A DNA stretch of 64,000 nucleotides. Source: a virus (Duplodnaviria; Heunggongvirae; Uroviricota; Caudoviricetes). The stretch lies in IMG/VR virus record IMGVR_UViG_2778261571_000004, one strand, 5' to 3'. The notes beneath the pieces were generated by a model. That model worked only from the letters and a program-made list of their open reading frames with translations. It was not told where the DNA came from and did not search any database. How positions within the stretch are numbered: position 1 is the stretch's first letter; the number at the start of each line of letters is the position of its first letter. Position numbers and translations under genes: made by a program. This document shows, piece by piece, positions 32,837 through 51,186 of this stretch.

Positions 32837-32849
32837 TTAATGGAATCTT

Positions 32850-32870
32850 GCGCCCACTATGGGCGCTTTT
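32850..32870 (+). terminator. Rho-independent terminator (identical copy at 33121)
   Basis: gcgcccactatgggcgc hairpin plus T run. Confidence 0.55.
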
Positions 32871-32883
32871 AAGGAGCTTAATC

Positions 32884-33114
32884 ATGTTTATTCTTATCGC
32901 TGGCGTTAACGTGCGCAATGAATATTTTGTTAATCGCATCGCTGGGATCGCTGGTTACGCTGGGCGCGCAGTCGAGTTCATAAATGAAACAACGCGAAAA
33001 ATTGACTTATTGAACGACCAGGAGCGAAAAAAAGCAGACGTGAATGACGCTGATATATTTTTAATGTTAAAAGCGTTTGTAGAAATGGGATTTAAAATCA
33101 GTTTACACAAATAA
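32884..33114 (+). CDS. Hypothetical small protein flanked by identical terminators
   Basis: Start at MFILIAG with AAGGAG RBS; ORF track 32848-33114. Confidence 0.35.
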   Translation: MFILIAGVNVRNEYFVNRIAGIAGYAGRAVEFINETTRKIDLLNDQERKKADVNDADIFLMLKAFVEMGFKISLHK

Positions 33115-33120
33115 AATCGA

Positions 33121-33143
33121 GCGCCCACTATGGGCGCTTTTTT
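33121..33143 (+). terminator. Rho-independent terminator (second identical copy)
   Basis: gcgcccactatgggcgc hairpin plus TTTTTT. Confidence 0.55.
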
Positions 33144-33167
33144 CGTTTCCAATACTCCCACCATAAC

Positions 33168-33192
33168 GCGCCAATGATGGCGCTTTTTTATT
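33168..33192 (+). terminator. Rho-independent terminator-like hairpin
   Basis: gcgccaatgatggcgc hairpin plus T run. Confidence 0.45.
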
Positions 33193-33604
33193 GTCTTTGA
33201 CTCACTCCAACAACATAAAAATAAGCGCCAAAATAACGCCATAGACGCGCTTTTATATCCTTGTCAGTACATACCCATTACTTAACACATTAACGCGCTT
33301 AAAACGCGTTATATTGCGCTATAGAGTATGGTTAATCATTGGCTTTTAGTCTTGCTATGTGATCCGCGTTTATTTGTCGGCGCGGATCGGCTCTTTGTGT
33401 TGTTTTGTATCCGCTCGCGTATTATGTGCGCGTGATTTTTCACATAATCACACCACTTAATCACATATGTGATTACGCTACGAAAGAAATCTGGATGTCT
33501 CAGGCGACGAAAGTCATCATAATTTTCCCCGCTCACCTGTCCGACAACCGCTGGTTGGATTCCACCAGCTTCCCGATGTTTTTTCTACATAAAGGCGAAT
33601 GCAG

Positions 33605-33694
33605 CCGTTTCCCGAAAAAATCCTGGCCGTTCCCCCGTCGGCTCATGAATACGTTCCTCGCCGCTTCTGAAAATTTCCCTGCGGCAGCTGGTGG
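33605..33694. repeat. Short cluster of about 22-bp direct repeats related to the array at 37572-37712, with adjacent Chi octamer
   Basis: CCGTTTCCCGAAAAAATCCTGG then CCGTTCCCCCGTCGG...; GCTGGTGG at 33687-33694. Confidence 0.45.
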
Positions 33695-33730
33695 CTATAG
33701 AGAAAGGGCCGTTTCTGGCCCTCTTCTCAG

Positions 33731-34213
33731 TTACACGCCATCAAGGATGTGGATGCGGTTGCTTGCGTATACATTCAGCATAAAGTTAGCGCAAAACAGT
33801 TTCCATGTATCAACGCCAGCGGTATACGTAATGTTTTTGCATTTAATCGCATTGTTGGCGATCCGCATCCCCTGCGATACTGCTTCATCGTCGGAAAATT
33901 TGAACGACGATTGAGTTTTAATCCAGACAGAAATCTGCGTAGCGAACTCAATCAGCTTGGACTGGCAGAATCGCCCGGAGCGCACCGGAAAGACGAACGT
34001 TCCGAATCCAGAATTTACCACATACGCTTTCTCAAATACCCGCGAGTAACGACGATTGCAAATGATGTCGCGTGCAATAATGCATTTTTCTTGTGCTGAC
34101 AGTTCTACCGTCTCATTGTCGCGCCATGCACCAAGTACTCGTTTTTCAATGTCAGAGAACGTTACAGCGATATTGCCATGTGCGGGTGCGTTTACAGTAG
34201 CGATAAAATTCAT
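33731..34213 (-). CDS. Hypothetical protein (operator-tagged moron)
   Basis: 160 aa; motif family 2 about 25 nt upstream of start. Confidence 0.35.
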   Translation of the reverse strand: MNFIATVNAPAHGNIAVTFSDIEKRVLGAWRDNETVELSAQEKCIIARDIICNRRYSRVFEKAYVVNSGFGTFVFPVRSGRFCQSKLIEFATQISVWIKTQSSFKFSDDEAVSQGMRIANNAIKCKNITYTAGVDTWKLFCANFMLNVYASNRIHILDGV

Positions 34214-34235
34214 GATTAATTCCTTATCGTAAATA

Positions 34236-34250
34236 ACAAATTGTTTTCTT
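34236..34250. promoter_or_regulatory. Operator-like palindrome, motif family 2
   Basis: aacaaattgttttct upstream of gene starting at 34213. Confidence 0.4.
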
Positions 34251-34418
34251 GTTGGTGTTAATTATCGTTGTACGAATAAGGCGTCAAAGTAGAAAGTTAC
34301 GGTAGCCGGACGGGAACAGGTGGGTTTGTCGGTTGCCTGGAGGTAAGAGGTTGGTGTTTTTAGCCTGCGGTAAACAGGATGGTCATTTAAGGCCACCAGC
34401 GTAAACTGGTGGCGTTTG

Positions 34419-35117
34419 TCATGCTGGAATCATATCTAATTGAAAAGATTCCATTATATATGTTGGTTCATCGATGTAGTCCTTCAGCCTATTGTCAAAT
34501 GACTCAAGCGGATTGTGTGGCGGATGATACCAGTCCGAGTATTCATTTAAAAAATGACCCATTATCAGTTCGATACCCACCTTTACTCCTGCAACTCCGA
34601 ACCATGCATTGTGCGTTAGTTGCTGGGCGTCTGTATCCAGTACGCGAATGCCATCAACAAGCTTTATTAGATTCCTGTGGTTTTCGTGTACTGTAACCTC
34701 TCCGCTGGTTAAGTCTATTTCAGCGAGAAAATATGGTCTTTTGCTTCCGTCGGACTTTTTGAAATGACAGTCATAAGCGACAGCAAACCACGCTTTACTA
34801 AAGTCTTTGTTGGCGTAAGTGGTACACATGCAACTAGGATAATCATCAATGTTAAACCAATCAGGAAGCGGATCATCTTTAGACGAGCCAGCAAAATCAT
34901 CAGCTAGTTTGTAGTTAATGTCTGGGTTGTACTTGCTGACAAAATCATCCACATCCTCTACATCCTCAACACCTTTCCAAACTTTACATTTCTCCGACCA
35001 AAAGAATCTCGCAATATCCGAAATGACTGGGAAACGTTTTTCAATTGAATTTATCAACTCTGCATGTTCTTTAAGAGATTTACGCTTGTTGATAAGCTTC
35101 TGAAGATGCGTACTCAT
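34419..35117 (-). CDS. Hypothetical protein
   Basis: 232 aa ORF, acidic N-terminal half, no recognised motif. Confidence 0.35.
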   Translation of the reverse strand: MSTHLQKLINKRKSLKEHAELINSIEKRFPVISDIARFFWSEKCKVWKGVEDVEDVDDFVSKYNPDINYKLADDFAGSSKDDPLPDWFNIDDYPSCMCTTYANKDFSKAWFAVAYDCHFKKSDGSKRPYFLAEIDLTSGEVTVHENHRNLIKLVDGIRVLDTDAQQLTHNAWFGVAGVKVGIELIMGHFLNEYSDWYHPPHNPLESFDNRLKDYIDEPTYIMESFQLDMIPA

Positions 35118-35400
35118 TTTTAATTCCTCGTTTGTTTTCGATGTGATAATTATCGCTGAATGAAATAGGCTAAAAAGAAGATTTATAAGGCTACTATCTG
35201 GAAGTAAGGCAAAGTGTTGTCATTTAAGGCCACCAATGCTGATGGCCTTAATAATTATCGCCCGATTACGCTAAGGATCTTTTCCTCAACTGATTTGTTG
35301 TTGCGACTAAACTGCCTTGCGTATCTGATGACAGAAGAGGCGTTTCGCTTTCTGACCATCTCGGCTCTTTCCTTCAGGCGTTTCTTGAAATCGCCCATAT

Positions 35401-35776
35401 TTACCACCAGGCGCAAAACGTCAGTCTGTTATTGTGAAAGTCGTGGTTCTTAATCAGGTCTTCCACAAGCTCTTTCAACTCCCCCACATCATGCCAGTAA
35501 CCTTCATCGTACTCCTGACTGCCGAAGAAAAAACCTTCCCGGGTAGGCAAGTACTCTTCGCAATTACTTTCGTTTATGTGCATCAAATGAGCCTTCAGAA
35601 AACAAATGTCATTCATCGTTAATTCTAAAAGCTCACAATTTTCGACTTCACCTACGTTGCGCTCCATCCACCCAACGAGCGCATTGAACTTACGGAAGTA
35701 AGCAACCCGCTTTCTGGATGCCTCATTATTCAGATCGTTTTTTGGCTGCGTCTCGATGTAGATATCAAGTCCCATG
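35401..35776 (-). CDS. Hypothetical protein
   Basis: Start set at MGLDIYIE with AAGGA RBS; ORF track 35401-35817 begins at an alternative start. Confidence 0.3.
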
Positions 35777-35892
35777 ATGGTTTCCTTATTAAGTTGCTTC
35801 AGTGAAATCATTTTCACAAATCAGATAAGGCAGAAAACAAATTGTTATCGGGCATAATAAAATGGCGCGGTTTGCGCGCCATTTAAAGAGGA

Positions 35893-36286
35893 TTAAGCGA
35901 ATACGCTTTCAGGGATTAAGGTGTCGGCAGGAATGCCAGAGGTAATGCGCAGACCGTACTGGCCAATCCAGGTGGTGCTGGTGTTCAGGCTGGAGGCGAA
36001 TACGGTGTTAACCATATTCATCATGGTTTCAAACACCTCTTCATCAACCTGGCGGAAGTAGTTCTCGATTTTCAGCAGCAGCGGGTCAGTTGCATCGAGA
36101 ATGGACTGGTATTGAGTCGCGTACTCGCCGTCGGAGTCATCACCTTTACGCACGATCGTACTGGCCTGTACTTCGGCGCCAGTTTCGGTGTTGTACGTAA
36201 CAACGGTGATTTTTGCCACATTCTTACCTTCGGCGGTTTCAGAGGCATAGTAAACATCAACTGTCAGTTTTTCGCGTTTAATGGTC
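35893..36286 (-). CDS. Hypothetical protein
   Basis: Start set at MTIKREK with GGAG RBS; ORF track 35893-36354; terminator hairpin downstream. Confidence 0.35.
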
Positions 36287-36414
36287 ATTTCACTCTCCGT
36301 AGTGTATTGGTTATTTTTATATTCTATGATCGTAAGTATGTACTTACAATACAAAAAAGCCCCGTAAGGATGGCGGGGCTGTCGTACGGTCGACTAATTA
36401 CCACTTGCACATTA

Positions 36415-36726
36415 TCAGGCTATTGCCATCACTGATGCTCTCTGAATCTCTTGCTGGGCCACGCGGTTAACTTCCATCAAAGCCAGTTCGAGCTGATGTT
36501 CCGGCCACATTCTTTGAAATGCCACCCAGCCTTTTCCACGCTGGCGACGAACATTCATTACATAACGAGTAAAGGTGTTTTTATCGAAAGACACCGCTGT
36601 TTCACGGAACAGACGAATAGAGGTTCCATTGGCAACGATGTCCAGCAAAGTTAATTGAGCAACCAGCGCAGGCTTCTCTTTTCTCTTCTGGTCTTTGTCC
36701 AGACCAAGAACCAATGATTTTTTCAT
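36415..36726 (-). CDS. Hypothetical small basic protein
   Basis: Start set at MKKSLVLG with GGAG RBS directly downstream of motif family 2; ORF track 36415-36774. Confidence 0.3.
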   Translation of the reverse strand: MKKSLVLGLDKDQKRKEKPALVAQLTLLDIVANGTSIRLFRETAVSFDKNTFTRYVMNVRRQRGKGWVAFQRMWPEHQLELALMEVNRVAQQEIQRASVMAIA

Positions 36727-36736
36727 CACAACTCCG

Positions 36737-36754
36737 TAAACAACTTGTTTTCTC
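36737..36754. promoter_or_regulatory. Operator-like palindrome, motif family 2
   Basis: taaacaacttgttttctc immediately upstream of RBS. Confidence 0.4.
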
Positions 36755-36879
36755 AATGGCGTAAATAATACCAATAAGAAAACGGCTACAAAGCATAATG
36801 ATCAGGTGCATGAGCGATATGCAGGTTCCTCCCTGCGGCTATAGAGAAATTAAGCCAGCAATGCTGGCTTTGGTTGGGA

Positions 36880-37230
36880 TTACGCGAATACCTCAAGAAA
36901 CTCCTGAACGTCCCAATGCTGGACGAGGTGAAGATAGACCTTAGAAATCACGTCATTTTCGCTATCGCATGTGAAGTAGTACTTCTGGCTGCGGTTGTAT
37001 GTGTCCACACAAAATTCGCTCATATCCATAAAGTCAGCATCTTCACCCATGTCGCAAATCATCAAAGCAGGTGCGTCATCACGAGTCATCAGCTCAAGCA
37101 CCCACCGCGAATTAATCAGAGTGGAAGACCAACCTTCTAACTCATAAAACTGATCAAACTCTTTTTGAGTTAATTTCTTAATTTGGTTGATGTCGATATT
37201 TGCAAACATAAAGCAATCCTTAAACAACAT
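36880..37230 (-). CDS. Hypothetical acidic protein
   Basis: 116 aa, D/E-rich; start codon lies inside a motif family 2 palindrome (gaaaacATGttgttt). Confidence 0.3.
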   Translation of the reverse strand: MLFKDCFMFANIDINQIKKLTQKEFDQFYELEGWSSTLINSRWVLELMTRDDAPALMICDMGEDADFMDMSEFCVDTYNRSQKYYFTCDSENDVISKVYLHLVQHWDVQEFLEVFA

Positions 37231-37571
37231 GTTTTCTTGATGGTGTTATTATCGCAATAACGCAAAGGCGAAAAAGGATTTTATTCCGGTGAATGTGGTT
37301 TTGGCAGTGAGTTTTCAGGTTCAGTACCGAGTACACTTTTTACATTATTCTGATTTAGTGGCCGAAGGTGGCTGGTGGGCAGAATAATCATCTCCCCGAA
37401 AACCTACTGAAATCGATTGTGACCCGTTGGCTGTCTGGCACAATTACGCTGTAACTGGGCATTCAGAGGGAGTCCAACGGTAAGTTAGTCCGCCTACGTG
37501 AGCGCCTCTCTTCTTCCCGCACATTACAGGTGGATAGCCGCAACTCTCCCTCTCGCTATACCGGTACGCCG

Positions 37572-37712
37572 CCGTTCCTGAACCGGCATCGAGCCTTTTC
37601 CCGAAATCCACACAGGCAACTCGACCGTTTCCCTGAAAACCTCCAGCCGTTCCCCGAAGGCAACCCAGCCGTTTCTGTAGCGGGATGCAGCCTTTTCCCT
37701 TATGGACCGGAG
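37572..37712. repeat. Array of six tandem 22-bp direct repeats (iteron-like)
   Basis: CCGTTCCTGAACCGGCATCGAG, CCTTTTCCCGAAATCCACACAG, CCGTTTCCCTGAAAACCTCCAG, CCGTTCCCCGAAGGCAACCCAG, CCGTTTCTGTAGCGGGATGCAG, CCTTTTCCCTTATGGACCGGAG; strict 22-bp register apart from one 9-nt gap. Confidence 0.65.
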
Positions 37713-37859
37713 GCTGACCGTAGGGGTGTTACGGGGGATAAAATCAGGAGTTGAATAAATACGAAAAAGGAGGCGACACCCCTCCTTCCCTCCCCACTTA
37801 TACATACCTGTCTTGTTCGCTATACATGTTGTGTTTTCTTCGTGTTTTATCTGTCTCAA

Positions 37860-38700
37860 CCTCTCTATAGGCGTTAATGCTCACTCCTTCCAGAACGTTC
37901 TATACGGCGACTAATTCTGTTGGTGAATTGGGTGTGTTGTTCTCTCTGTCGGTGTAAATGGTTTCGTTCGTTTTGCGGTGGTTCTTCTATGGGGTGTTCT
38001 CGTCGTTTTGGTGATTGTTCTTCTCCGTCTATGGAGTAATGGCAGGTGGGCGATTGCTTTCGTTATTGTGTTTGAGTTGTTTGTCTGGAGTGTGTGAAAG
38101 GCTTTTGTAGTTATTCGTGTATTGGGTAATGGCGTTTCCCGTGATTGTTATGTTTCGTGTCTTTTGGGGTTGAGAGAAACCTTGCGGTAACAGGCTTCGT
38201 TGGGGTTTCAGTGATTCTGGTGTTTCTTCGCTGTTTGGGGAATGGCGTGTCGTGGGTATCGCGCGTATGAATGTTTTCGGATTGCCTGTGAAAGTTAGGT
38301 TGGTTGTCCGGTAGCCTGGGAAGAAGAGGTGGGTCTTTTCGGTAGCCTGCCATAAAGAGGTTGGTTGTTTTGGGGAATGGCATATGTGTTATTTAGTTGT
38401 TTTGTTATGCCTGAAAATAAGTTGTTTATATGGTTGTGTAACGCAATGGGAGTGATTTTGAGCGTGTGTTTTTGTTGGTAGTGTGTTGGTCGTCTGTGGT
38501 GAAAATTGGACGCTGTGGCGCTGTCTGCTGCGTAGAATTACGGGTATAAGCAGTGATGTGTGAAAACGTCAATTTTTTAGACCAAATCGGGTGAAAGCGT
38601 TGATGTTTCGTTGATCTGTTATTCAGTTGTTTCCTTGATTGTATAAACAACTATAACTTATTGATATTTAAGGGTGTGATTGCAGGTATGGAAGGAGAGT
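37860..38700. other. Non-coding region with extreme GT strand skew and degenerate 100-130-bp repeats
   Basis: About 78 percent G+T on plus strand in sampled 60-mers; recurring words gtaatggc, gggaatggc, cggtagcctg; ORFs here are low-complexity. Confidence 0.5.
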
Positions 38701-38781
38701 AGTGGCGATCAACGGATTCTTATAGAAAAGAATCAAATTGTGACCGCCATTATCAACTGATTGATTTGTTTACTTGTGTAG

Positions 38782-39180
38782 TCAGTTCTCGAAATGAATA
38801 GGGTCAACGTAATGCCGCTCACCGCTTTTACCATTACACAGCACTGTAACTTTCGCCTTTTCACTCCAGGCTGAGTATAGAAAGTTCCCATCAGGTTGAA
38901 CATGGTAACGAGAGAAGTAAACATCGCCGACTGAGGCGTCGAACATGTTCCTATCTTTTTCACTTTGGGCAAGCGAGATGGATATCACCGAATTCCCATT
39001 TGGGGAAACGATTTTAAATTTATTCCCTATATCCATAACAATATTGTAACCAGGTAATTGCTTGTGTGTTTCCGGATCTATTTTCATGCATCGTGGGTAC
39101 ACGATAGTGTTAGGCTCTTCAACTGGCGTGGCATTAGCAGAAAGCACAAAAAATATTAGTGCCAATGGTGCATATTTCAT
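38782..39180 (-). CDS. Putative secreted protein
   Basis: 132 aa with N-terminal signal-peptide-like segment MKYAPLALIFFVLSANA. Confidence 0.4.
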   Translation of the reverse strand: MKYAPLALIFFVLSANATPVEEPNTIVYPRCMKIDPETHKQLPGYNIVMDIGNKFKIVSPNGNSVISISLAQSEKDRNMFDASVGDVYFSRYHVQPDGNFLYSAWSEKAKVTVLCNGKSGERHYVDPIHFEN

Positions 39181-39189
39181 TTATCCCTC

Positions 39190-39481
39190 ACAATTTCCAA
39201 TTTTCCAGACCATCGTCTATTTCAGCGTCAGGGTGGAATTGTACCGCATCAAATCCTACATCGAGCACCTTTCGAATGTTCTTGATGGTTTGCTATGTGA
39301 CACCGTAATCACGCAGCTTTTCTTCCCTCCCCTGACTCCCCCATACTCCGTTTCTGTACCCAATTGAGTCCGAGATCGTATGGTGCTCGAAACAGATATT
39401 TGGTAGACACTCAGAGTCATGCTGTGTAACGAGGGTAGGGCTACTAACTGTCGTCTTATACAATTTGGTGAGTTTCAGCAT
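39190..39481 (-). pseudogene. Possible frameshifted small gene
   Basis: 62-aa ORF 39293-39481 ends at a stop while a second frame continues plausibly (...IKNIRKVLDVGFDAVQFHPDAEIDDGLENWKL) to about 39190. Confidence 0.2.
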
Positions 39482-39723
39482 TTTACCACCCCGTTCGGAA
39501 ACAACTCATTCGCCGTAGTTGATATAACCTCCCAATTAACGCCGACATCAGCGTTATGGCATTGTCTGATTTTTTGCATCACCTGTACGCATTGTTCATC
39601 AGTGAGATCTGTCCTTACTTCAGCAATATCTTCTTTGTGCCACATAACCATGAGTAAGGGTTCGTCTTCTGGATAGTTTTTCAGTTTCTCGATGATTTCT
39701 TTTGCTGTTCCAAACATCTTCAT
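39475..39723 (-). CDS. Hypothetical small acidic protein
   Basis: 82 aa; AGGAG RBS and motif family 2 palindrome directly upstream. Confidence 0.35.
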   Translation of the reverse strand: MKMFGTAKEIIEKLKNYPEDEPLLMVMWHKEDIAEVRTDLTDEQCVQVMQKIRQCHNADVGVNWEVISTTANELFPNGVVKC

Positions 39724-39728
39724 CTCCT

Positions 39729-39746
39729 AAACAATTTGTTTTCTTA
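39729..39746. promoter_or_regulatory. Operator-like palindrome, motif family 2 (second copy at about 39774-39796)
   Basis: taaacaatttgttttctt and gaaaacaaattgtttta, within 100 nt of the metG terminator. Confidence 0.4.
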
Positions 39747-39830
39747 TATGGCTTATTATCTCAATCAACAAAAGGTAGAAAACAAATTGTTTTAGGGCTT
39801 GTGTAAATCAGGAGGGATTGTGTCTATATG

Positions 39831-39856
39831 AAAATGCCCAGCGTATTGCTGGGCAT
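39831..39856 (-). terminator. metG Rho-independent terminator
   Basis: aatgcccagcaatacgctgggcatttt on minus strand, 20 nt downstream of metG stop. Confidence 0.65.
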
Positions 39857-39876
39857 TGTGAAGAATGGTTGCTTAA

Positions 39877-41910
39877 TTACTTAACCTGGTGGCCAGGTTT
39901 AGCACCGACATCCGGGCTTAACAGGAAGATATCTTTCCCGCCAGGGCCAGCAGCCATCACCATGCCTTCGGAGATACCGAAGCGCATTTTACGCGGAGCC
40001 AGGTTAGCCACCATAATGGTGTGACGACCAATCAGTGCCTGTGGGTCTGGATAAGCAGAACGGATGCCTGAGAAGACATTGCGTTTTTCACCGCCGAGAT
40101 CCAGTGTCAGACGCAGCAGCTTGTCAGAACCTTCAACAAACTCTGCGTTTTCGATCAGCGCCACGCGCAGGTCAACTTTGGCGAAGTCGTCAAAGGTGAT
40201 GGTTTCCTGAATCGGGTCGTCAGCCAGTGGGCCAGTTACCGGTGCGGCTGTGGCTTTCACTTCTTCTTTGGATGCTTCCACCAGTGCTTCCACCTGTTTC
40301 ATATCGATACGGTTATACAGTGCCTTGAACGGATTCACTTTATGGCCCAGCAGCGGTTGCTGGATACCATCCCAGGTCAGTTCTGTATTCAGGAATGCTT
40401 CTGCACGTTCAGTCAGTTTCGGCAGTACCGGCTTCAGGTACGTCATCAGCACGCGGAACAGGTTAATGCCCATAGAGCAAATCGCCTGCAGATCGGCATC
40501 GCGTCCTTCCTGCTTCGCCACCACCCACGGAGCCTGTTCATCGACATAGCGGTTAGCCAGGTCAGCCAATGCCATGATTTCACGGATAGCTTTACCAAAT
40601 TCGCGGCTTTCCCATGCTTCGCCAATCACTTCAGCGGCATCAGTAAAGGTTTTGTACAGTTGCGGGTCAGCCAGTTCGTTTGCCAGCACGCCGTCAAAAC
40701 GCTTGTTGATAAAGCCTGCATTACGGGAGGCCAGGTTAACCACTTTGTTCACGATATCGGCATTCACGCGCTGAACGAAATCCTCCAGGTTGAGATCGAT
40801 ATCATCAATGCGCGAAGAGAGTTTCGCAGTGTAGTAGTAACGCAGGCTGTCAGCGTCAAAATGATTCAGCCAGGTGCTGGCTTTAATAAAGGTGCCGCGA
40901 GACTTGGACATCTTCGCGCCGTTCACCGTCACATAGCCATGAACAAACAGGTTGGTCGGCTTGCGGAAGTTGCTGCCTTCCAGCATGGCAGGCCAGAACA
41001 GGCTGTGGAAGTAAACGATATCTTTACCGATGAAGTGGTACAGCTCGGCGGTGGAGTCTTTCTTCCAGTATTCATCGAAGCTGGTGGTATCGCCGCGCTT
41101 GTCGCACAGATTCTTGAAGGAACCCATGTAGCCAATCGGCGCGTCCAGCCAGACGTAGAAATATTTGCCCGGCGCGTCCGGAATTTCAAAACCGAAGTAA
41201 GGCGCATCGCGGGAGATATCCCACTGTTGCAGGCCAGATTCAAACCACTCCTGCATTTTGTTTGCCACCTGCTCCTGCAACGCGCCGCTGCGGGTCCATG
41301 CCTGCAACATTTCGCTGAAAGAAGGCAGATCAAAGAAGAAGTGTTCGGAATCACGCATTACCGGGGTAGCGCCAGAAACCACCGATTTCGGCTCGATCAA
41401 TTCAGTCGGGCTATATGTTGCGCCGCAGACTTCACAGTTATCGCCGTATTGATCTGGCGCTTTACATTTCGGGCAGGTGCCTTTTACAAAACGATCCGGC
41501 AGGAACATGCCTTTTTCCGGGTCGTACAACTGAGAGATAGTGCGGTTTTTAATAAAACCGTTCTCTTTCAGGCGAGTATAGATAAGCTCAGACAACTGAC
41601 GGTTCTCTTCGCTGTGCGTCGAGTGATAGTTGTCATAGCTGATGTTAAAGCCTGCGAAATCAGTCTGGTGTTCCTGACTCATTTCGCCAATCATCTGTTC
41701 CGGTGTGATACCAAGCTGCTGTGCTTTCAGCATGATCGGCGTACCGTGGGCATCGTCGGCACAGATGAAATTAACCTCGTGGCCGCGCATTCGCTGGTAA
41801 CGAACCCAGACATCAGCCTGGATGTGCTCCAGCATATGGCCGAGGTGGATTGAGCCGTTAGCGTACGGCAGCGCGCACGTCACCAGAATTTTCTTCGCGA
41901 CTTGGGTCAT
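39877..41910 (-). CDS. metG: Methionine--tRNA ligase
   Basis: 677 aa from [31 protein letters not shown]; HIGH (HLGH) and KMSKS motifs, zinc knuckle CPKC...CEVC, C-terminal tRNA-binding domain; ORF track start at 42039 is an upstream in-frame extension. Confidence 0.95.
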
Positions 41911-42067
41911 AGTAGGCATTACTTCTTTGTAGTGAAAAGGGGCTTGATAGTAACAAAATGGCCTTATGTCTGCCATGTGATAACAGCATTTCTCATAAAT
42001 GATTAAATGTCGTAGCTGGAGTACACTACAAGGCGACAATTGCGCAAATTAAAATAAAGGAGACGGG

Positions 42068-43168
42068 ATGAGCGAGTCCAAATCGCCGGATGCCCTGAGA
42101 GCAATGGTAGCCGGTACGCTGGCTAATTTTCAGCACCCAACCCTGAAACACAACCTGACTACGCTTAAAGCGTTACACCATGTTGCGTTGATGGATGACA
42201 CACTGCATGTCGAACTAATCATGCCTTTCGTGTGGAATAAGCCTTTTGAAGACCTGAAAGAGCAATGTAGTGGTGATCTGCTCCGTATCACTGGCGCAAA
42301 GGCTATCGACTGGAAGCTGTCGTACAACATTGCCACGCTTAAGCGCGTCAAAAACCAACCAGGCATTAATGGCGTTAAGAACATTATCGCCGTCAGCTCA
42401 GGCAAGGGCGGTGTAGGCAAATCGTCCACAGCAGTAAACTTGGCACTGGCGTTGGCTGCTGAAGGTGCGAAAGTTGGTATTTTGGATGCCGATATCTACG
42501 GTCCATCAATTCCAACCATGCTGGGTGCGGAAAACCAACGTCCAACCTCACCGGACGGCACTCACATGGCACCTATCATGTCTCATGGCCTGGCAACCAA
42601 CTCAATTGGTTATCTGGTCACTGACGACAACGCGATGGTGTGGCGTGGCCCGATGGCGAGCAAGGCGTTGATGCAAATGTTGCAAGAAACCTTATGGCCG
42701 GATCTGGATTATCTGGTGCTCGACATGCCGCCAGGCACCGGTGACATTCAATTGACACTGGCGCAAAACATTCCTGTAACTGGTGCGGTTGTGGTAACTA
42801 CGCCGCAAGACATCGCGCTGATCGATGCGAAGAAAGGCATTGTGATGTTCGAAAAAGTCGAAGTGCCGGTACTAGGTATCGTCGAAAACATGAGTGTGCA
42901 TATTTGCAGTAACTGCGGTCATCACGAGCCAATTTTTGGCACCGGTGGCGCACAGAAACTGGCCGAGAAATACAACACGCAGTTGTTAGGCCAAATGCCA
43001 CTTCATATCTCTCTTCGTGAAGATCTGGATAACGGAACACCAACCGTTATTAGTCGTCCAGATAGCGAATTTACGGCTATTTATCGTGACCTCGCAGATC
43101 GCGTTGCTGCCCAAATGTATTGGCAAGGTGAAGTAATACCTGGCGAAATCGCATTCCGCGCAGTGTGA
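42068..43168 (+). CDS. apbC: Fe-S cluster carrier ATPase ApbC/Mrp
   Basis: Deviant Walker A GKGGVGKSS, CxxC motif (CSNCGHHE), divergent from metG with 157-bp spacer as in enterobacterial chromosomes. Confidence 0.95.
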   Translation: MSESKSPDALRAMVAGTLANFQHPTLKHNLTTLKALHHVALMDDTLHVELIMPFVWNKPFEDLKEQCSGDLLRITGAKAIDWKLSYNIATLKRVKNQPGINGVKNIIAVSSGKGGVGKSSTAVNLALALAAEGAKVGILDADIYGPSIPTMLGAENQRPTSPDGTHMAPIMSHGLATNSIGYLVTDDNAMVWRGPMASKALMQMLQETLWPDLDYLVLDMPPGTGDIQLTLAQNIPVTGAVVVTTPQDIALIDAKKGIVMFEKVEVPVLGIVENMSVHICSNCGHHEPIFGTGGAQKLAEKYNTQLLGQMPLHISLREDLDNGTPTVISRPDSEFTAIYRDLADRVAAQMYWQGEVIPGEIAFRAV

Positions 43169-43170
43169 TA

Positions 43171-43197
43171 AAAAGGCGGTGCAATGCACCGCCTAAT
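43171..43197. terminator. Bidirectional terminator between convergent apbC and umuD-like gene
   Basis: aaaaggcggtgcaatgcaccgcct hairpin. Confidence 0.55.
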
Positions 43198-43205
43198 CAG
43201 CTCTC

Positions 43206-43595
43206 CTACATCACGGGACAATCATCAAACTCGCCACTTCTTGCGTCGTTGATAATGTGAGTGATCACACCAAACACGGCATTGCTGCCCGTGCATCCAT
43301 CGTCATCCTTTGGCAATGCTTCCTTCTTACCGGTTCTTAAATCCTCCAGATGCTGACGTGGGTACTTCCGGTATCTTTTTACGCGATATTCCCCATCCAG
43401 AGCGCATACAAGCAGAGAACCATCAACCGGGGTAAGTGAGGAATCGACCACCAGCAATGCACCCTGTAATATTCCCTCACGATGATGACTATCAGCTGCC
43501 CTCATGAAGTAGGTCGCTGAAGGATGTCTAATTATCTGCTGATCAAGAGAAATACGGCTCTCAGCATAATCCGCCGCAGGAGAAGGGAAGCCCAT
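43206..43595 (-). CDS. humD: UmuD'-like S24 peptidase-fold protein (HumD-like, no UmuC partner in window)
   Basis: 129 aa beginning GFPSPAADY, the position where UmuD is cleaved to UmuD'; Ser (ADSH) and Lys (RVKR) equivalents retained; GAGG RBS. Confidence 0.75.
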   Translation of the reverse strand: MGFPSPAADYAESRISLDQQIIRHPSATYFMRAADSHHREGILQGALLVVDSSLTPVDGSLLVCALDGEYRVKRYRKYPRQHLEDLRTGKKEALPKDDDGCTGSNAVFGVITHIINDARSGEFDDCPVM

Positions 43596-43613
43596 AGCGT
43601 TTTCACCTCAGAA

Positions 43614-43633
43614 TACTGTTTATCCATACAGTA
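43614..43633. promoter_or_regulatory. LexA (SOS) box in promoter of umuD-like gene
   Basis: tactgtttatccatacagta matches CTGT-N8-ACAG consensus, about 20-40 nt upstream of start. Confidence 0.7.
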
Positions 43634-43759
43634 TACATTAAAGATGCTTGAAGTGTGCAATAGCGCGATGCTTTGCGCTCGCCTGGTGGTGCGTTATTTT
43701 TTGGCTATATCTTCTTTCTGATATACCGGATCGTTTCCTTTTGGCAGCAGGAGGCTTAA

Positions 43760-43957
43760 CTACCGGTAGTGCCGTAGCCGTTCCATGAAATAGGTGCGCA
43801 GGTTCTCAGGTTGCTCACGGGCTACCTGTTCCGCTATGACGGGTATGTTCAATCGCTCTTTGTAGGCAACCCCCCTGGCAGCCAGGTCAACGTTAACTTT
43901 ATTCCTTTCTTCCTGGCTTTTAGCTGCTATGTTCCATTCGTTCATATTAAATCCCAT
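43760..43957 (-). CDS. Hypothetical small protein upstream of umuD-like gene
   Basis: 65 aa ORF, same strand, separated from humD-like gene by LexA box region. Confidence 0.3.
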
Positions 43958-44413
43958 CCAGAATAATTGAATAACGGCTATTATTTAGTCGCCGCAATAT
44001 CTTCAAAGTTTTTTTTCTCACCCCATTGCTTTTTGCGCACAGCTTATCTGGCTTGCGGTGCGCGAAATGTAAATTCGCCTTCAGAGTTATCCACAAAGTT
44101 ATGCACTTGCAACGGGGCCATTTTCCTCATACCGTGTTTGCACACACAGGAAATGGATATTTTATTAATTGAATTTTATTAAATAATAATGATAAGGAGA
44201 AAATTTGAGATGTAATCATGACATTAATAGATAGGGCCTGCATTACAGGCCCCAACTACATCAAGGAATTCACAGTTCCCTGATTTTTATACCGAAAACA
44301 TGTGCCGTAAGTTCACGTTAACGACTTTCTTTCACCGAATCCAACTATATAGAGGTTGGGTTTCTACGTCAACGTGAGAGCACGCAGCTTTACATTAGAC
44401 GAGGATTACCCTG

Positions 44414-44551
44414 ATGATTGTATTTTTTCAGTTTCTAAGTGCATTTTTAAATGCGCCTGTTCTTAGCCAAGTGCTGGCGATTGTCTTCATCGTGGTTCTG
44501 ATATGGTTTTTCAAGTCAGTGATAAACAGAGGCGTGCGCTGGCTTATTTAA
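44414..44551 (+). CDS. Putative small hydrophobic peptide (45 aa)
   Basis: Own translation MIVFFQFLSAFLNAPVLSQVLAIVFIVVLIWFFKSVINRGVRWLI; below ORF-track length cutoff; nested inverted repeats upstream. Confidence 0.25.
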   Translation: MIVFFQFLSAFLNAPVLSQVLAIVFIVVLIWFFKSVINRGVRWLI

Positions 44552-44734
44552 TGTCGCGATGAGATATTAATTCCCTTGCTGTTTAACCATTTTTTGTGTG
44601 TGCTGGTGAGCGTGTGAAGGCTCAATTTGTTGCCCACCAGTATTTACTATTTCTAAGCTCCACAGTGTCACTTCCGCACAAACAACTTAGCGCGGAATCA
44701 GTATTCGGCCCAAGATGTAAAAAGCCAACCTGCG

Positions 44735-44959
44735 TTATGGTTCGCATTTCCAAATAGTGTTCTGAACGCCCTTGCCGGGCGCGAGATGTAGATTAGCGTT
44801 CACGCTATGCTGATATACGGCTTTAGACTTTCCATATTGCTGACAGGCTTTATCTGCGGTTTTTTGCAGGCTATCCAGCCCATACCAGCCATCAGACTGG
44901 ATGCTTACCTTTTCACCGTCATTGTATTGCACCATCGCGCACCCAAACATGGCTATCAT
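44735..44959 (-). CDS. Hypothetical small protein
   Basis: 74 aa ORF immediately upstream of hsdM on opposite strand. Confidence 0.25.
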   Translation of the reverse strand: MIAMFGCAMVQYNDGEKVSIQSDGWYGLDSLQKTADKACQQYGKSKAVYQHSVNANLHLAPGKGVQNTIWKCEP

Positions 44960-45083
44960 CGCACCGACAATACCACTTTTCCAAAAAGCTCTAATTAGGT
45001 CATTCGTTACCTAATGTCCGAACTGCTAAAGCATCCAAGTTGCTGTAGAATCACCGCCAATTACATAAGCCTGAAATAAGTGG

Positions 45084-46642
45084 ATGAAAATGACAAGTAT
45101 TCAACAACGTGCAGAGCTTCATCGTCAAATCTGGCAAATTGCTAACGATGTCAGGGGTTCGGTCGATGGATGGGATTTTAAGCAATACGTTCTGGGCGCA
45201 CTTTTCTACCGTTTTATCAGCGAAAATTTTTCCAGTTATATTGAAGCCGGTGATGACAGTATCTGTTATGCGAAACTGGATGACAGCGTAATTACTGATG
45301 ACATTAAAGACGATGCCATCAAAACTAAAGGCTACTTCATCTACCCCAGTCAGCTTTTCTGCAACGTAGCTGCGAAAGCAAATACTAATGACAGACTGAA
45401 TGCAGATTTAAACAGCATCTTCGTTGCTATCGAAAGTTCTGCTTACGGTTATCCTTCAGAAGCAGACATCAAAGGTTTGTTTGCTGATTTCGATACCACC
45501 AGTAACCGCCTGGGTAACACCGTTAAAGATAAAAATGCCCGCCTGGCTGCGGTTCTGAAAGGGGTTGAAGGGTTAAAACTTGGTGACTTCAACGAACATC
45601 AGATTGACCTGTTCGGTGATGCCTATGAGTTCCTGATTTCTAACTATGCGGCAAATGCCGGTAAGTCAGGCGGTGAGTTCTTTACACCGCAGCACGTCTC
45701 CAGGCTGATTGCACAACTGGCAATGCATGGCCAGACCCACGTTAACAAAATCTACGACCCGGCAGCGGGTTCCGGCTCACTGTTGTTGCAGGCGAAAAAA
45801 CAGTTTGATAACCACATCATCGAAGAAGGCTTTTTCGGTCAGGAAATCAACCATACGACCTATAACCTGGCGCGTATGAACATGTTTTTGCACAATATCA
45901 ACTACGACAAGTTTGATATCAAGCTGGGTAATACACTGACTGAGCCGCACTTCAGAGATGAAAAACCGTTTGACGCCATCGTATCTAACCCACCGTATTC
46001 GGTGAAATGGATTGGCAGCGATGACCCGACGCTGATTAACGATGAGCGTTTTGCCCCGGCTGGCGTTCTGGCCCCCAAATCCAAAGCTGACTTTGCGTTT
46101 GTATTACATGCACTGAACTATCTTTCTGCCAAAGGTCGTGCTGCGATTGTCTGCTTCCCGGGTATTTTTTACCGTGGCGGCGCGGAGCAGAAAATCCGTC
46201 AGTATCTGGTCGATAATAACTATGTCGAAACCGTGATTTCACTGGCACCGAACCTGTTCTTTGGCACCACCATTGCAGTAAACATTCTGGTGCTGTCTAA
46301 ACATAAAACGGATACCAACGTTCAGTTTATTGACGCCAGCGAACTGTTCAAAAAAGAGACTAACAACAATATCCTGACCGATGCCCATATCGAACAGATT
46401 ATGCAGGTATTTGCCAGCAAGGAAGATGTTGCTCATCTGGCGAAATCTGTCACGTTTGAGACCGTTGTCGCGAATGACTATAACCTGTCGGTAAGCAGCT
46501 ATGTGGAAGCGAAAGATACTCGCGAAATTATCGATATCGCTGAGTTGAATGCAGAACTGAAAACCACGGTCAGCAAAATCGACCAGTTGCGTAAAGATAT
46601 TGATGCGATTGTGGCTGAAATTGAAGGCTGCGAGGTGCAGAA

Positions 46643-46646
<4 letters not shown>
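45084..46646 (+). CDS. hsdM: Type I restriction-modification methyltransferase subunit (type IC, EcoR124-like)
   Basis: 520 aa; SAM-binding and NPPY (NPPYSVKW) N6-adenine methylase motifs; N-terminus matches remembered EcoR124I HsdM. Confidence 0.9.
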
Positions 46647-47890
<1,244 letters not shown>

Positions 47891-48011
47891 TTGACCATTG
47901 CTACCGACCGGGCCACCTTAACACCCGGTCTGTATATAGACTATTTTTTACGCGCCGGAAGTCACTCTTAACGCCCTTCCGGCCCTTGCCAGGCGGCACA
48001 AAGGATGCGCT

Positions 48012-51000
48012 ATGACTCATCAAACACACACCATTGCTGAATCCAATAACTTTATCGTCCTTGATAAGTACATCAAAGCTGAGCAAACAAGCGACAGCTA
48101 CCAGAGCGAATCGGACCTGGAACGTGAACTGATTCAGGACCTGCGGAATCAGGGTTATGAATTTATTTCCGTAAAATCACAGTCGGCAATGCTGTCCAAT
48201 GTTCGGGAACAGCTTCAGAGCCTCAATGGTGTGATGTTTAATGACAGCGAGTGGCGGCGCTTCACGGAGCAGTATCTGGACAATCCCAGCGATGGTATTC
48301 TGGATAAGACCCGTAAAATCCATATCGACTATATCTGCGACTTTATTTTTGACGACGGGCGTCTTGAGAACATCTATCTGATCGATAAAAAGAATCTCAT
48401 GCGCAACAAAGTGCAGATTATCCAGCAGTTTGAACAGGCAGGTTCTCATGCTAACCGTTATGACGTCACGATCCTGGTTAATGGCTTGCCTCTGGTGCAA
48501 ATCGAACTGAAAAAGCGCGGCGTGGCGATTCGTGAGGCTTTCAACCAGATACATCGTTACAGTAAAGAGAGTTTTAACAGCGAAAACTCCCTGTTTAAGT
48601 ATCTGCAACTGTTTGTCATTTCTAACGGCACCGATACCCGTTATTTTGCCAACACAACAAAGCGCGATAAAAACAGTTTTGATTTCACCATGAACTGGGC
48701 GAAATCAGACAACACGCTGATTAAAGACCTCAAAGACTTTACCGCTACCTTTTTCCAGAAACATACTCTGCTGAATGTTCTGGTGAACTACAGCGTGTTT
48801 GACAGTAGTCAGACGCTACTGGTGATGCGACCGTACCAGATTGCCGCCACCGAGCGCATTCTGTGGAAAATTAAGAGCTCCTTTACAGCGAAGAACTGGT
48901 CAAAACCGGAAAGCGGTGGGTATATCTGGCACACTACCGGTTCTGGTAAAACCCTTACCAGCTTTAAAGCCGCGCGTCTGGCAACAGAGCTGGACTTTAT
49001 TGATAAAGTCTTCTTTGTGGTCGACAGAAAAGACCTCGATTACCAGACCATGAAGGAATATCAGCGTTTTTCGCCAGACAGCGTCAACGGCTCGGAAAAT
49101 ACCGCAGGCCTTAAACGAAATCTGGATAAGGACGATAACAAAATTATCGTCACTACTATTCAGAAACTCAATAACCTGATGAAAGCAGAAAGCGACCTGC
49201 CTGTATATAATCAGCAAGTGGTGTTCATATTTGATGAATGCCACCGCAGCCAGTTTGGAGAAGCGCAGAAAAACCTGAAGAAGAAATTCAAACGCTATTA
49301 TCAGTTTGGTTTTACCGGCACCCCTATTTTCCCGGAAAACGCCTTAGGCTCAGAAACAACCGCCAGCGTATTTGGTCGTGAATTGCATTCGTATGTAATT
49401 ACCGATGCGATTCGTGACGAAAAAGTGCTCAAATTCAAGGTGGACTACAACGATGTGCGGCCACAGTTTAAGTCTTTAGAGACAGAAACTGACGAGAAAA
49501 AACTAAGTGCGGCTGAAAATCAGCAGGCGTTTCTTCATCCCATGCGTATTCAGGAAATCACGCAATATATTCTGAATAATTTCCGCCAGAAAACTCACCG
49601 TACCTTCCCTGGCTCAAAAGGTTTTAATGCTATGTTGGCAGTGAGCAGCGTGGATGCCGCGAAAGCCTATTATGCGACGTTTAAACGGTTACAAGAAGAA
49701 GCCGCTAATAAATCGGCTACCTATAAACCGCTGCGTATTGCGACAATCTTCTCCTTTGCCGCTAATGAAGAACAAAATGCCATTGGTGAAATTTCCGATG
49801 AAACTTTTGATACCAGCGCAATGGACAGCAGTGCTAAAGAGTTTCTGGACGCTGCAATTCGTGAATATAACAGCCATTTTAAAACTAACTTTAGCACCGA
49901 CAGTAACGGTTTTCAGAACTACTATCGTGATTTAGCCCAGCGGGTTAAAAATCAGGATATCGATCTGTTAATTGTCGTTGGGATGTTTTTAACCGGCTTC
50001 GACGCTCCAACATTGAACACGCTATTCGTCGATAAAAACTTGCGTTTTCACGGCCTGATGCAGGCATTTTCCCGCACCAACCGTATTTATGATGCAACTA
50101 AAACCTTCGGTAATATCGTCACTTTCCGGGATCTGGAACGCTCAACCATCGATGCCATAACGCTGTTTGGTGACAAAAACACCAAAAATGTAGTGTTAGA
50201 AAAGAGTTATGCAGAGTATATGGAAGGCTTTACTGATGCTGCTACAGGTGAAGCTAAACGCGGCTTTATGGCAGTAGTTTCAGAACTGGAACAACGGTTC
50301 CCTGACCCTGCCAGTATTGAAAGTGAAAAAGAGAAGAAAGACTTCGTTAAACTGTTTGGCGAATACCTGCGTGCCGAGAACATCCTGCAAAACTATGATG
50401 AATTTGCCACGCTGAAAGCCCTGCAACAAATCGATCTTAGCGATCCTGTTGCGGTAGAAAAATTCAAAGAAGAACATTATGTGGATGATGAAAAGTTCGC
50501 TGAATTGCAAACGATTCGTCTCCCTGCTGAACGCAAGATTCAGGATTATCGTTCTGCCTATAACGATATTCGTGACTGGCAGCGCCGCGAGAAAGAAGCT
50601 GATAAAAAAGAAAAATCAACCACTGACTGGGATGACGTGGTTTTTGAGGTCGATTTGCTGAAGTCTCAGGAAATAAACCTGGATTATATCCTTGGACTGA
50701 TTTTCGAACACAACAGACAAAATAAAGGCAAGGGCGAAATGATCGAAGAGGTCAAACGCTTAATTCGTTCAAGCCTGGGGAACCGGGCGAAAGAGGGCCT
50801 GGTGGTCGATTTTATTCAGCAAACGAACCTGGATGATTTACCAGACAAAGCCAGCATCATTGACGCGTTCTTTACCTTTGCTCAACACGAACAGCTACGT
50901 GAAGCAGAAGCGTTGATTAAAGAAGAAAATCTCAATGAAGAGGCGGCGAAACGCTATATTCGCACGTCTTTAAAACGCGAATACGCCACCGAAAATGGCA

Positions 51001-51128: not shown

Positions 51129-51186
51129 TGTATTAATCTGAACCAGATCTGGCAGATATCTGTGCAAATTGCAGATAGCTGTCAGA

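Follow-up and report, generated by a model that had tools for sequence, protein, structure and literature searches.

The metG–apbC locus

Two intact genes of housekeeping type lie side by side in the window, by which we mean the whole 64,000-nt stretch of viral DNA analyzed here. On the minus strand, metG (39877..41910) encodes a methionine–tRNA ligase (MetRS) of 677 residues that matches the NF001100 equivalog with 1019.9 bits (cutoff 587). On the plus strand, apbC (also called mrp; 42068..43168) encodes ApbC, a P-loop NTPase of 366 residues that carries Fe–S clusters and matches the NF008669 equivalog with 759 bits (cutoff 348). The pair is arranged divergently, as is mrp–metG of Escherichia coli K-12. 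A 720-aa open reading frame reaching 42039 was considered for metG and rejected as a spurious upstream extension of the real coding sequence.

MetRS is full length, anticodon-binding and C-terminal tRNA-binding domains included, with PF09334, PF19303 and PF01588 all matched in a Pfam scan. It possesses the HLGH (residue 22) and KMSKS (residue 333) motifs and the Zn knuckles CPKC (146) and CEVC (159). ApbC matches PF10609, and its translation contains the deviant Walker A motif GKGGVGKS and a cluster-binding CXXC motif, CSNC. Compared with K-12, metG is 98.4% identical in amino acids and 94% in nucleotides, while apbC is 94% identical in amino acids and only about 82% in nucleotides. The two MetRS proteins differ at 11 residues, each in a column that is variable across 73 other enterobacterial MetRS and none in an invariant one. 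S319T, R538K and A554T are the only substitutions common to all phage-plasmid copies, and each of these residues is also found in chromosomal enzymes. As MetRS carries no unusual substitution, an altered enzyme is not predicted by the sequence itself.

Homology to K-12 is confined to positions 39876-43164 and ends at the two stop codons. The cassette is a 3.3-kb chromosomal piece trimmed to two coding sequences and their shared control region. Comparison of its flanks and terminators with 80 enterobacterial chromosomal loci revealed no homology. The site it occupies is an accessory hotspot between a DUF1380 early gene and the rnhA block. The DUF1380-family gene (39475..39723, minus strand) is the left backbone neighbor; it is annotated as DUF1380 in relatives and its position is homologous to that of SSU5_104.

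The initial annotation gave both genes terminators of their own. This held for metG, which is followed by an intrinsic-terminator-like hairpin with a 10-bp stem and UUUU (39829..39857, minus strand; hairpin 39833-39857, dG -17.6 kcal/mol, z -6.1). In the GC-rich 9-bp hairpin at 43174..43194, where apbC and humD converge, the U-tract lies on the humD strand, and a shared or bidirectional terminator is the better reading.

Between the two start codons lies a divergent control region of 157 nt (41911..42067). The 47 nt nearest metG are conserved with chromosomes and contain a candidate extended -10 element, TGTTACTAT (41947..41955, minus strand), while the remainder is unlike any chromosome. A sigma-70 promoter scan at the tool threshold found none within 41911-42067, and a relaxed scan gave weak candidates only (8/12 matches). 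Across 10 of 11 phage-plasmid copies its identity is 99.4-100%; the adjoining coding sequences differ by 2-5%.

The surrounding element

The window is colinear with the circular plasmid NZ_AP027904.1 at 42,450-105,336, with 97.5-99.2% identity. Together with annotated relatives, this colinearity identifies positions 1..64000 as a contiguous 63-kb stretch of an SSU5-supergroup phage-plasmid. Genes are ordered from tail, head and terminase genes through ParB-like genes, a helicase and early and accessory genes to the cargo island, followed by rnhA, dam, exo, frd, thyA and nrdB. In NZ_AP027904.1, annotated genes for capsid, portal and terminase match the structural module at 17.3-24.5 kb with 99.2% identity, and 790 plasmids have this module in common with the window. 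ParB-like genes are placed at about 25.3-26.7 kb by colinearity with this relative. Both SSU5 and the colinear part of this relative have an annotated block of genes for nucleotide metabolism and replication (nrdAB, thyA, frd, dam, rnhA and exonuclease). An Rfam scan of the window gave no matches.

The top matches to the window are circular, non-mobilizable E. coli plasmids of 108-114 kb and phage Cyrano (pLF82); its close relatives are all circular plasmids of 106-117 kb. The sequence collections hold no record identical to the window, the closest being 97.7% identical over 87%. The phage-type DNA on either side of the metG–apbC pair, as first described, was borne out by annotated relatives.

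The initial annotation also remarked that integrase, repressor and replication initiator were missing from the 64 kb. Indeed, repA and a master repressor are absent from the window. The colinear relative carries repA, an integrase/recombinase, a repressor, dnaE, a primase and a helicase in the ~50 kb beyond it, which makes their absence an effect of where the window ends.

Three kinds of repeated sequence mark the backbone. Palindrome A, AAACAANTTGTTT, occurs 11 times against 0.48 expected, palindrome B, TAAGTANNTACTTA, 19 times against 1.6, and a 55-nt hairpin element twice against 0. All three were found to the left and right of metG–apbC, as the initial annotation stated. The left copy of the hairpin element (23215..23269) has a TAAGTA..TACTTA-like site in its loop; the right copy lies at 56458..56512. 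Two copies of AAACAANTTGTTT upstream of the DUF1380 gene (39729-39741 and 39780-39792) stand just outside the cassette and are kept in all phage-plasmid relatives, and the first copies right of the cargo island are at 53308-53320 and 54037-54049. Palindrome A has no site between 39.8 and 53.3 kb, and palindrome B none between 36.4 and 54.9 kb. The palindromes and the hairpin element are real backbone signals that are absent from the cargo island. That both flanks belong to one element, as had been argued, is upheld by the single circular plasmid colinear with both and by the identity of the motifs as SSU5-family backbone signals.

The window very probably belongs to an extrachromosomal prophage-plasmid of the SSU5 supergroup, from the Escherichia/Shigella clade in which metG–apbC is long-resident cargo. 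Its relatives include pLF82 (phage Cyrano) and pECOH89, to which the literature adds pWPMR2. Recognizing the phage-plasmid guards the window against being mis-annotated as a chromosome or as two prophages.

Cargo beside the cassette

A humD-type gene, encoding a pre-cleaved UmuD'-like protein (43206..43595, minus strand), matches the NF051876 HumD equivalog over its full length with 219.8 bits and shows no homology with the K-12 locus. Next comes a hot-like gene for a homolog of DNA polymerase III theta (43760..43957, minus strand; PF06440 with 100.7 bits, NF008207 with 91.4 bits, slightly below its cutoff of 97). A humD–hot pair of this kind is found in phage P1.

Farther right is a variable type IC restriction–modification (R-M) cassette (45084..51128, plus strand), with hsdM at 45084-46646, hsdS, containing three TAEL repeats, at 46643-47890, and hsdR at 48012-51128. 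It is about 96% identical to cassettes of phages phi456 and vB_EcoM-673R5 (records of about 90-95 kb), which we take to be P1-like. The hsdMSR genes are absent from Cyrano and other relatives, where different genes occupy their place. The humD and theta genes and the R-M system are separate mobile cargo rather than part of a chromosomal capture, and only metG–apbC is chromosome-derived. One proposal had been a phage-plasmid that captured a chromosomal segment including the umuD-like gene and the R-M system. Its phage-plasmid and the chromosomal origin of metG–apbC stand; the two additional parts of the segment do not.

Distribution, selection and ancestry

The search for a second metG copy, suggested at the outset, was positive throughout: each of 5,426 complete E. 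coli genomes has its own chromosomal metG–apbC, at most 90.7% identical to the copy in the window. A cassette copy at least 95% identical occurs in 215 of 20,395 records (5,426 genomes), that is, in about 4% of genomes, with 223 matching places on plasmids. The plasmid copy is a distinct allele class.

About 200 plasmids have the window-type cassette at 95-99%. At 90% identity or more, the cassette was found in about 198 plasmids, compared with 217 for the structural module, and about 90% of the clade has it. Among PLSDB entries, six Shigella plasmids possess it; the SSU5-type clades of Klebsiella, Salmonella, Enterobacter and Yersinia do not. CP059946.1 was considered as an "empty site" relative and rejected: the cassette is present with both genes frameshifted and is merely omitted from the PLSDB gene table. 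Frameshifts affect two of 11 cassette copies and may be sequencing errors or real loss.

Among nine intact phage-plasmid copies, dS and dN are 0.16 and 0.003 for metG (dN/dS 0.019) and 0.14 and 0.0015 for apbC (dN/dS 0.011). The ApbC protein is the same in five of the nine, although their apbC genes carry 33-45 synonymous differences from that of the window. Purifying selection among these copies is strong for both genes. Short gene-conversion tracts with E. coli-type chromosomal alleles are visible in the cassette, as stretches of 13, 8 and 5 successive K-12-type sites (permutation p<0.001).

The ancestries of metG and apbC are discordant. Matches listed in the donor scan include Escherichia sp. 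E1V33, a record labeled Escherichia sp. ESNIH1 that falls outside Escherichia in trees, and a record labeled Enterobacter hormaechei that is identical to K-12. A search with the ApbC protein was uninformative on the donor, since the 90% clusters pool plasmid and chromosomal forms.

A joint reading of these data appears plausible, although short of probable. Selection would act on both genes together with their frozen control region rather than on metG by itself, with ApbC as a constitutive lysogenic-conversion protein and the cassette as an old chimera undergoing continued gene conversion. According to this reading, apbC and most of the control region may derive from a lineage basal to the Escherichia sampled, a donor comparison that left out E. 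albertii, E. fergusonii, E. marmotae and E. ruysiae. An E. coli-proximal allele would later have replaced metG, and continuing short-tract conversion with host chromosomal copies might produce the reported "highly variable" metG.

Proposed role and alternatives

The cassette would supply a lysogen with a second set of MetRS and ApbC, and we infer that it is an autonomously controlled lysogenic-conversion (moron) module. Extra MetRS, dependent on copy number, may disturb the charging of Met-tRNA and the initiation of translation in a fraction of cells, and the disturbance could lead to growth heterogeneity and tolerance. ApbC would be a co-selected, constitutively made Fe–S carrier and not a passenger. 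Cyrano also encodes an AtaT/KacT-like toxin, of a family whose members acetylate aminoacyl-tRNAs, initiator Met-tRNA among them, and a functional tie between MetRS and this toxin could be imagined as a speculative possibility.

Cyrano forms virions, as observed by qPCR and electron microscopy, and is present at about 5.5 copies per chromosome (PMC9928086). In its lysogen the apbC transcript is about 9-fold over the prophage background and metG only about 1.6-fold (PMC9928086, S1 table). The metG level is thus near background (about 16 fpkm), and it is lower still in DMEM and macrophages (same table). This makes a constitutive dosage effect doubtful for that strain. In Shigella sonnei, expression of phage-plasmid metG is reported to give an antimicrobial-surviving subpopulation, as related in PMC12452169 with citation of Tam et al. 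2024 (doi 10.1101/2024.10.27.24316207).

Alternatively, the cassette may serve the phage, with MetRS and ApbC induced to sustain translation initiation and the supply of Fe–S enzymes in lytic growth, and persistence as a by-product. We consider this rather unlikely. It would accommodate the near silence of metG in the Cyrano lysogen, the orientation of metG, which is that of the surrounding early genes, and the near fixation of the cassette in the clade; moreover, many backbone genes serve replication and nucleotide metabolism, and tRNAs are carried. Nevertheless, none of the backbone promoter–operator palindromes lies upstream of metG or apbC, and the hairpin with its humD-strand U-tract sets humD apart from the cassette. 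The expression of apbC in the Cyrano lysogen is constitutive, and the SSU5-type clades of the four other genera manage without the cassette.

Carriage of a second aminoacyl-tRNA synthetase on a plasmid is a familiar way to resistance. The second MetRS might accordingly be an inhibitor-resistance gene, comparable with MupA (an IleRS) or with the second MetRS of Streptococcus pneumoniae, directed against a natural MetRS inhibitor. The purifying selection that maintains metG would fit, but the near identity of the enzyme to that of K-12, the restriction of its differences to variable columns and the occurrence of its three universal substitutions in chromosomal enzymes render this very improbable. 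Still less credible is a neutral hitchhiker, or decaying DNA left by illegitimate recombination: two of 11 copies are frameshifted and metG expression is low in one lysogen, but the substitution pattern contradicts it, with dN/dS low in both genes among copies differing at 14-16% of their synonymous sites; in addition, the control region hardly varies and most of the clade retains the cassette.

The least likely explanation is that the window is chromosomal, with native metG–apbC between two prophage remnants, as the initial annotation had entertained in the form of two related phage-derived insertions, or with a phage-plasmid integrated via metG homology: the chromosomal gene arrangement, the G+C of 0.505-0.515, above that of the neighbors, and the recombination with chromosomal alleles would agree with it, but the evidence contradicts it. 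K-12 homology stops at the stop codons, the chromosomal neighbors yehE and yehF are missing, the allele occurs in no E. coli chromosome, the best matches are all plasmids or phages, both flanks are colinear with one circular plasmid, and a search of the boundaries for att-like repeats found no direct or inverted repeats of at least 8 nt.

Phage-plasmid-borne metG has already been published (pWPMR2, persistence of Shigella sonnei); the present analysis leaves that basic picture unchanged and adds modest new detail. New are the exact boundaries of the cassette, the distinctness of the humD, theta and R-M cargo, the strong purifying selection on apbC in addition to metG, the nearly invariant control region, the discordant ancestry and the conversion tracts. 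They suggest that work confined to metG may overlook half of the module. The phage-plasmid allele, in the account cited above, is tied to antimicrobial survival in epidemic Shigella sonnei.

Comparison with known systems

Cyrano (pLF82; OV696614; PMC9928086) shares with the window the backbone and the order metG–apbC–humD, at 97.4-97.6% identity. It is a proven virion-forming phage-plasmid. On the right side of humD the gene content differs, with Ea22/Eaa-like genes and a DUF4942 gene in Cyrano and theta and hsdMSR in the window.

The pWPMR2-type phage-plasmid of Shigella sonnei is, by its published description, likewise a member of the SSU5 supergroup of Escherichia/Shigella with a second, variable metG. 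Clade K, which includes pWPMR2, is described as having no detected defense systems (bioRxiv 10.1101/2025.09.12.675607). The window differs from it in possessing a type I R-M system, and this difference points to clade J (pSLy3 subgroup).

The Salmonella phage SSU5 has structural and nucleotide-metabolism modules in common with the window, an accessory hotspot in the same position adjoining a DUF1380 gene, and AAACAANTTGTTT upstream of early genes. It lacks metG–apbC; its hotspot contains ant, DNA methyltransferase and Eaa-like genes, and nucleotide identity to the window is only about 78%, over short stretches. pHCM2 has also been placed in the SSU5 supergroup (bioRxiv 10.1101/2025.09.12.675607).

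The mrp(apbC)–metG locus of K-12 has the same genes in the same divergent arrangement, with the conserved 47-nt metG-proximal leader and -10 region. Overall identity is 88.5%; outside those 47 nt the intergenic region is unrelated, as are both terminators and every neighbor. As with MupA-type plasmid synthetases, a mobile element adds an extra synthetase beside the housekeeping one. MupA, however, is divergent and insensitive to its inhibitor, whereas the MetRS of the window is essentially wild type and not divergent at functional sites.

Identity of the element

When searched by megablast against three collections, the cassette of metG and apbC (mrp) and its flanks matched circular, non-mobilizable E. 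coli plasmids of 108–114 kb at 96–98% identity, together with the Escherichia phages Cyrano, PhiR41_1 and CMS-2020a. The entire window is colinear with one such plasmid, NZ_AP027904.1, from 42,450 to 105,336. By the annotation of that plasmid, the left part carries tail, capsid, portal and terminase genes, and the right part rnhA, dam, a 3'–5' exonuclease, dihydrofolate reductase, thymidylate synthase and nrdBA. The initial annotation had placed phage-type DNA on both sides of the gene pair and preferred a large phage-plasmid with a captured chromosomal segment to two related insertions in a chromosome. Gene content and colinearity bear out the former claim, and colinearity with a single plasmid makes the preferred explanation essentially right. 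The integrase, repressor and replication initiator were not visible in the window because repA, a site-specific integrase and a regulator lie on the remaining ~50 kb of NZ_AP027904.1, along with dnaE, primase, a DnaB-like helicase, ligase and four tRNAs. In NZ_AP027904.1, a 4.7-kb gene for a phage tail protein starts in the stretch colinear with the far-left end of the window; the window's gene at the far left contains four tandem 99-nt (33-codon) repeats (1811–2206; 62–72% identity).

Cyrano (pLF82) is an SSU5-like phage-plasmid, inducible by ciprofloxacin, that forms virions and is present at ~5.5 copies per chromosome (PMC9928086). The structural module is common to 790 PLSDB plasmids from Klebsiella, Escherichia, Enterobacter, Yersinia and Salmonella. 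It is at least 90% identical in 217 of these, which places the window within the SSU5 supergroup, among its Escherichia/Shigella members.

The palindrome AAACAANTTGTTT occurs at 11 sites in the window (0.48 expected) between 23139 and 54049, for example at 36738, 37222, 39729 and 53308. TAAGTANNTACTTA occurs at 19 (1.6 expected), and a 55-nt hairpin element at 23215 and 56458. All three are found on both sides of the cassette. AAACAANTTGTTT was present in every SSU5-type locus fetched (8 sites in 33 kb of SSU5) and in none of about 80 enterobacterial chromosomal loci. The earlier argument from shared motifs, that left and right flank belong to a single element, is correct. At a fixed spacing, AAACAANTTGTTT follows a GATAAT-like hexamer by ~14 nt and immediately precedes the Shine-Dalgarno/ribosome-binding sites of small early genes; it is likely to be part of a repeated early promoter–operator unit. 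No AAACAANTTGTTT was found between 39.8 and 53.3 kb of the window and no TAAGTANNTACTTA between 36.4 and 54.9 kb; the cassette appears to stand outside the backbone's motif-based regulatory scheme.

About 750 nt of the minus strand (~37,950–38,700) are A/C-rich, very G-poor and without credible ORFs. No CDS is annotated there in relatives and no Rfam match was obtained. The stretch is dense in AACAA-type (ARN-like) motifs. Candidate roles are a long non-coding transcript lacking structure, a site of Rho utilization or an RNA to which proteins bind.

Genes and limits of the cassette

In the ORF list, metG (39877–41910, minus strand) encodes a MetRS of 677 aa and apbC (42068–43168, plus strand) a protein of 366 aa. 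The divergent genes are separated by a 157-nt spacer (41911–42067), an arrangement identical to mrp–metG in E. coli K-12. Both proteins matched NCBIfam equivalogs over their full length (NF001100, 1019.9 bits, cutoff 587; NF008669, 759 bits, cutoff 348) and have the expected Pfam domains. The divergent chromosomal order read from the sequence at the outset is confirmed by these matches and the K-12 locus comparison. A longer metG ORF reaching 42039 was rejected as a spurious extension. The MetRS differs from that of K-12 at 11 positions, each variable among 73 other enterobacterial MetRS; no change falls at an invariant column of this set, and the enzyme retains its catalytic and zinc motifs.

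The G+C content of the gene pair is 0.505–0.515, compared with 0.43–0.45 on both flanks. Homology to the K-12 chromosome is confined to 39876–43164 (88.5% identity), that is, the two coding sequences and the spacer, of which only the 47 nt adjoining the metG start are recognisably conserved. DNA past both stop codons had no match in the 80 enterobacterial chromosomal loci, and a check for att-like boundaries detected no direct or inverted repeats of at least 8 nt bracketing the cassette. A terminator-like hairpin with a U-tract follows metG (39829–39857, minus strand; fold dG −17.6, z −6.1), and the fold scan gave another hairpin 3' of apbC (43174–43194) with its U-tract on the humD strand.

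The second metG copy that the initial annotation suggested looking for is chromosomal: it was present in all 5,426 complete E. coli genomes, with at most 90.7% identity to the window. Copies at least 95% identical were found in a further 215 records, with 223 matching places on plasmids. By these identities the phage-plasmid allele forms a class of its own, always carried as a second copy. In PLSDB, ~198 plasmids have a cassette at least 90% identical, and all 209 cassette matches include 191 from Escherichia and 6 from Shigella. Set against the 217 clade plasmids, a comparison of totals for two plasmid sets and not a record-by-record overlap, the ~198 suggest that the cassette is near-fixed in the clade and essentially absent from other SSU5 clades.

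Ancestry and gene conversion

Relative to K-12, metG has a dS of 0.28, equal to the distance between K-12 and Escherichia sp. E1V33, whereas the dS of apbC is 1.46, at or past the Escherichia–Citrobacter distance. In neighbour-joining trees, phage-plasmid metG falls inside Escherichia next to E. coli (bootstrap 97/100), and the phage-plasmid apbC copies are monophyletic, on a long branch that is sister to E. coli and E1V33 together (96/100). Identity to K-12 jumps inside the spacer. This discordance and the jump argue for a chimeric cassette or a replaced metG.

Consecutive K-12-type alleles were observed in runs of 13 sites in pEC881_2, 8 in an O104:H4 plasmid and 5 in the window's own apbC (42604–42668; permutation p<0.001 for each). 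The runs indicate that gene conversion with chromosomal-type alleles continues, and such conversion could plausibly give rise to the 'highly variable' metG of the literature. In CP170191.1, labelled as an Enterobacter hormaechei B56 chromosome, the apbC–metG region shows no difference from that of E. coli K-12 (100% identity), which suggests a mislabelled or contaminated record.

Maintenance on the element

Selection was assessed in the window and ten other phage-plasmid copies (n=11), nine of which have an intact cassette. Frameshifts are present in both genes of CP059946.1 and in metG alone of NZ_CP099888.1, and reflect either true pseudogenization or sequencing errors at homopolymers. The PLSDB gene tables silently leave out these two copies.

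Among intact copies, mean dS and dN are 0.16 and 0.003 for metG (ratio 0.019) and 0.14 and 0.0015 for apbC (ratio 0.011). Five of the nine encode an identical ApbC despite 33–45 synonymous differences from the window. In 10 of the 11 copies the spacer is 99.4–100% identical; the coding DNA next to it differs by 2–5%. The low ratios and near-invariant spacer show that the element maintains both genes together with their control region; apbC would not be a passive passenger.

Possible function

The metG–apbC phage-plasmid phenomenon is already known, being annotated in hundreds of records and functionally studied. PMC12452169, citing Tam et al. 2024, reports an association of multi-copy, highly variable phage-plasmid metG with multidrug resistance in S. 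sonnei, and states that its expression gives rise to some cells with a predisposition to becoming cephalosporin-resistant. The S. sonnei element was named pWPMR2 and assigned to SSU5 clade K (2025 preprint, bioRxiv 10.1101/2025.09.12.675607). The cassette limits, the selection on apbC, the frozen control region, the discordant ancestry and the conversion tracts are incremental additions.

A simple metG dosage model is tempered by the Cyrano transcriptome. In overnight LB, metG was at ~16 fpkm (~1.6x the prophage median), apbC at ~92 fpkm and humD at ~148 fpkm, and metG did not rise in DMEM or macrophages (PMC9928086). The cassette is best interpreted as an autonomously controlled conversion module, in which synthesis of MetRS would be low or heterogeneous and that of ApbC constitutive. 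metG may also act in the lytic phase. The wild-type-like protein makes a function in resistance to a MetRS inhibitor unlikely.

The Cyrano GNAT toxin CYRAN_26 (10191–10712 of the fetched Cyrano locus, L095) scored ~268 bits to PDB 6AJM, 6GTS and related chains, a group we take to be AtaT, and ~253 bits to KacT. The AtaT/KacT-like family acetylates aminoacyl-tRNAs, initiator Met-tRNA included. A functional tie between CYRAN_26 and the plasmid MetRS is conceivable; the toxin gene is absent from the window.

Neighbouring accessory genes

Beyond apbC lie a full-length HumD-family gene (NCBIfam; 43206–43595, minus strand, 129 aa) and a polymerase III theta homologue (NCBIfam/Pfam profiles; 43760–43957, minus strand, 65 aa). 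Phage P1 has such a gene pair, humD and hot. The type IC hsdMSR cassette (ORF list; 45084–51128, plus strand) is ~96% identical to those of phages phi456 and vB_EcoM-673R5, which we take to be P1-like. Its HsdS (46643–47890) contains 3.5 copies of a 12-nt unit (47207–47248), giving three TAEL repeats. The TAEL region is the type IC (EcoR124-like) spacer, and its repeat number sets recognition-site spacing.

In pZ1323HEC0016-2 (NZ_CP148383.1), der (EngA, a ribosome-biogenesis GTPase) directly follows apbC (6051–7523 of the fetched locus, L085), a second translation-related housekeeping gene captured at this hotspot. NZ_AP027904.1 also carries cspG and a GrxA-family glutaredoxin besides its four tRNAs.

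Because relatives differ in the genes beside it, metG–apbC marks one end of an accessory hotspot, and its neighbours are independent cargo. The captured segment, initially drawn to include the umuD-like gene and the type IC system, consists of metG–apbC, with those two excluded. Where the window has hsdMSR, Cyrano has Ea22/Eaa-like genes, pZ1323HEC0016-2 der and other members of the plasmid family a toprim-domain gene; in SSU5 this position, adjoining the DUF1380 gene, is taken by ant, a methyltransferase gene and Eaa-like genes.
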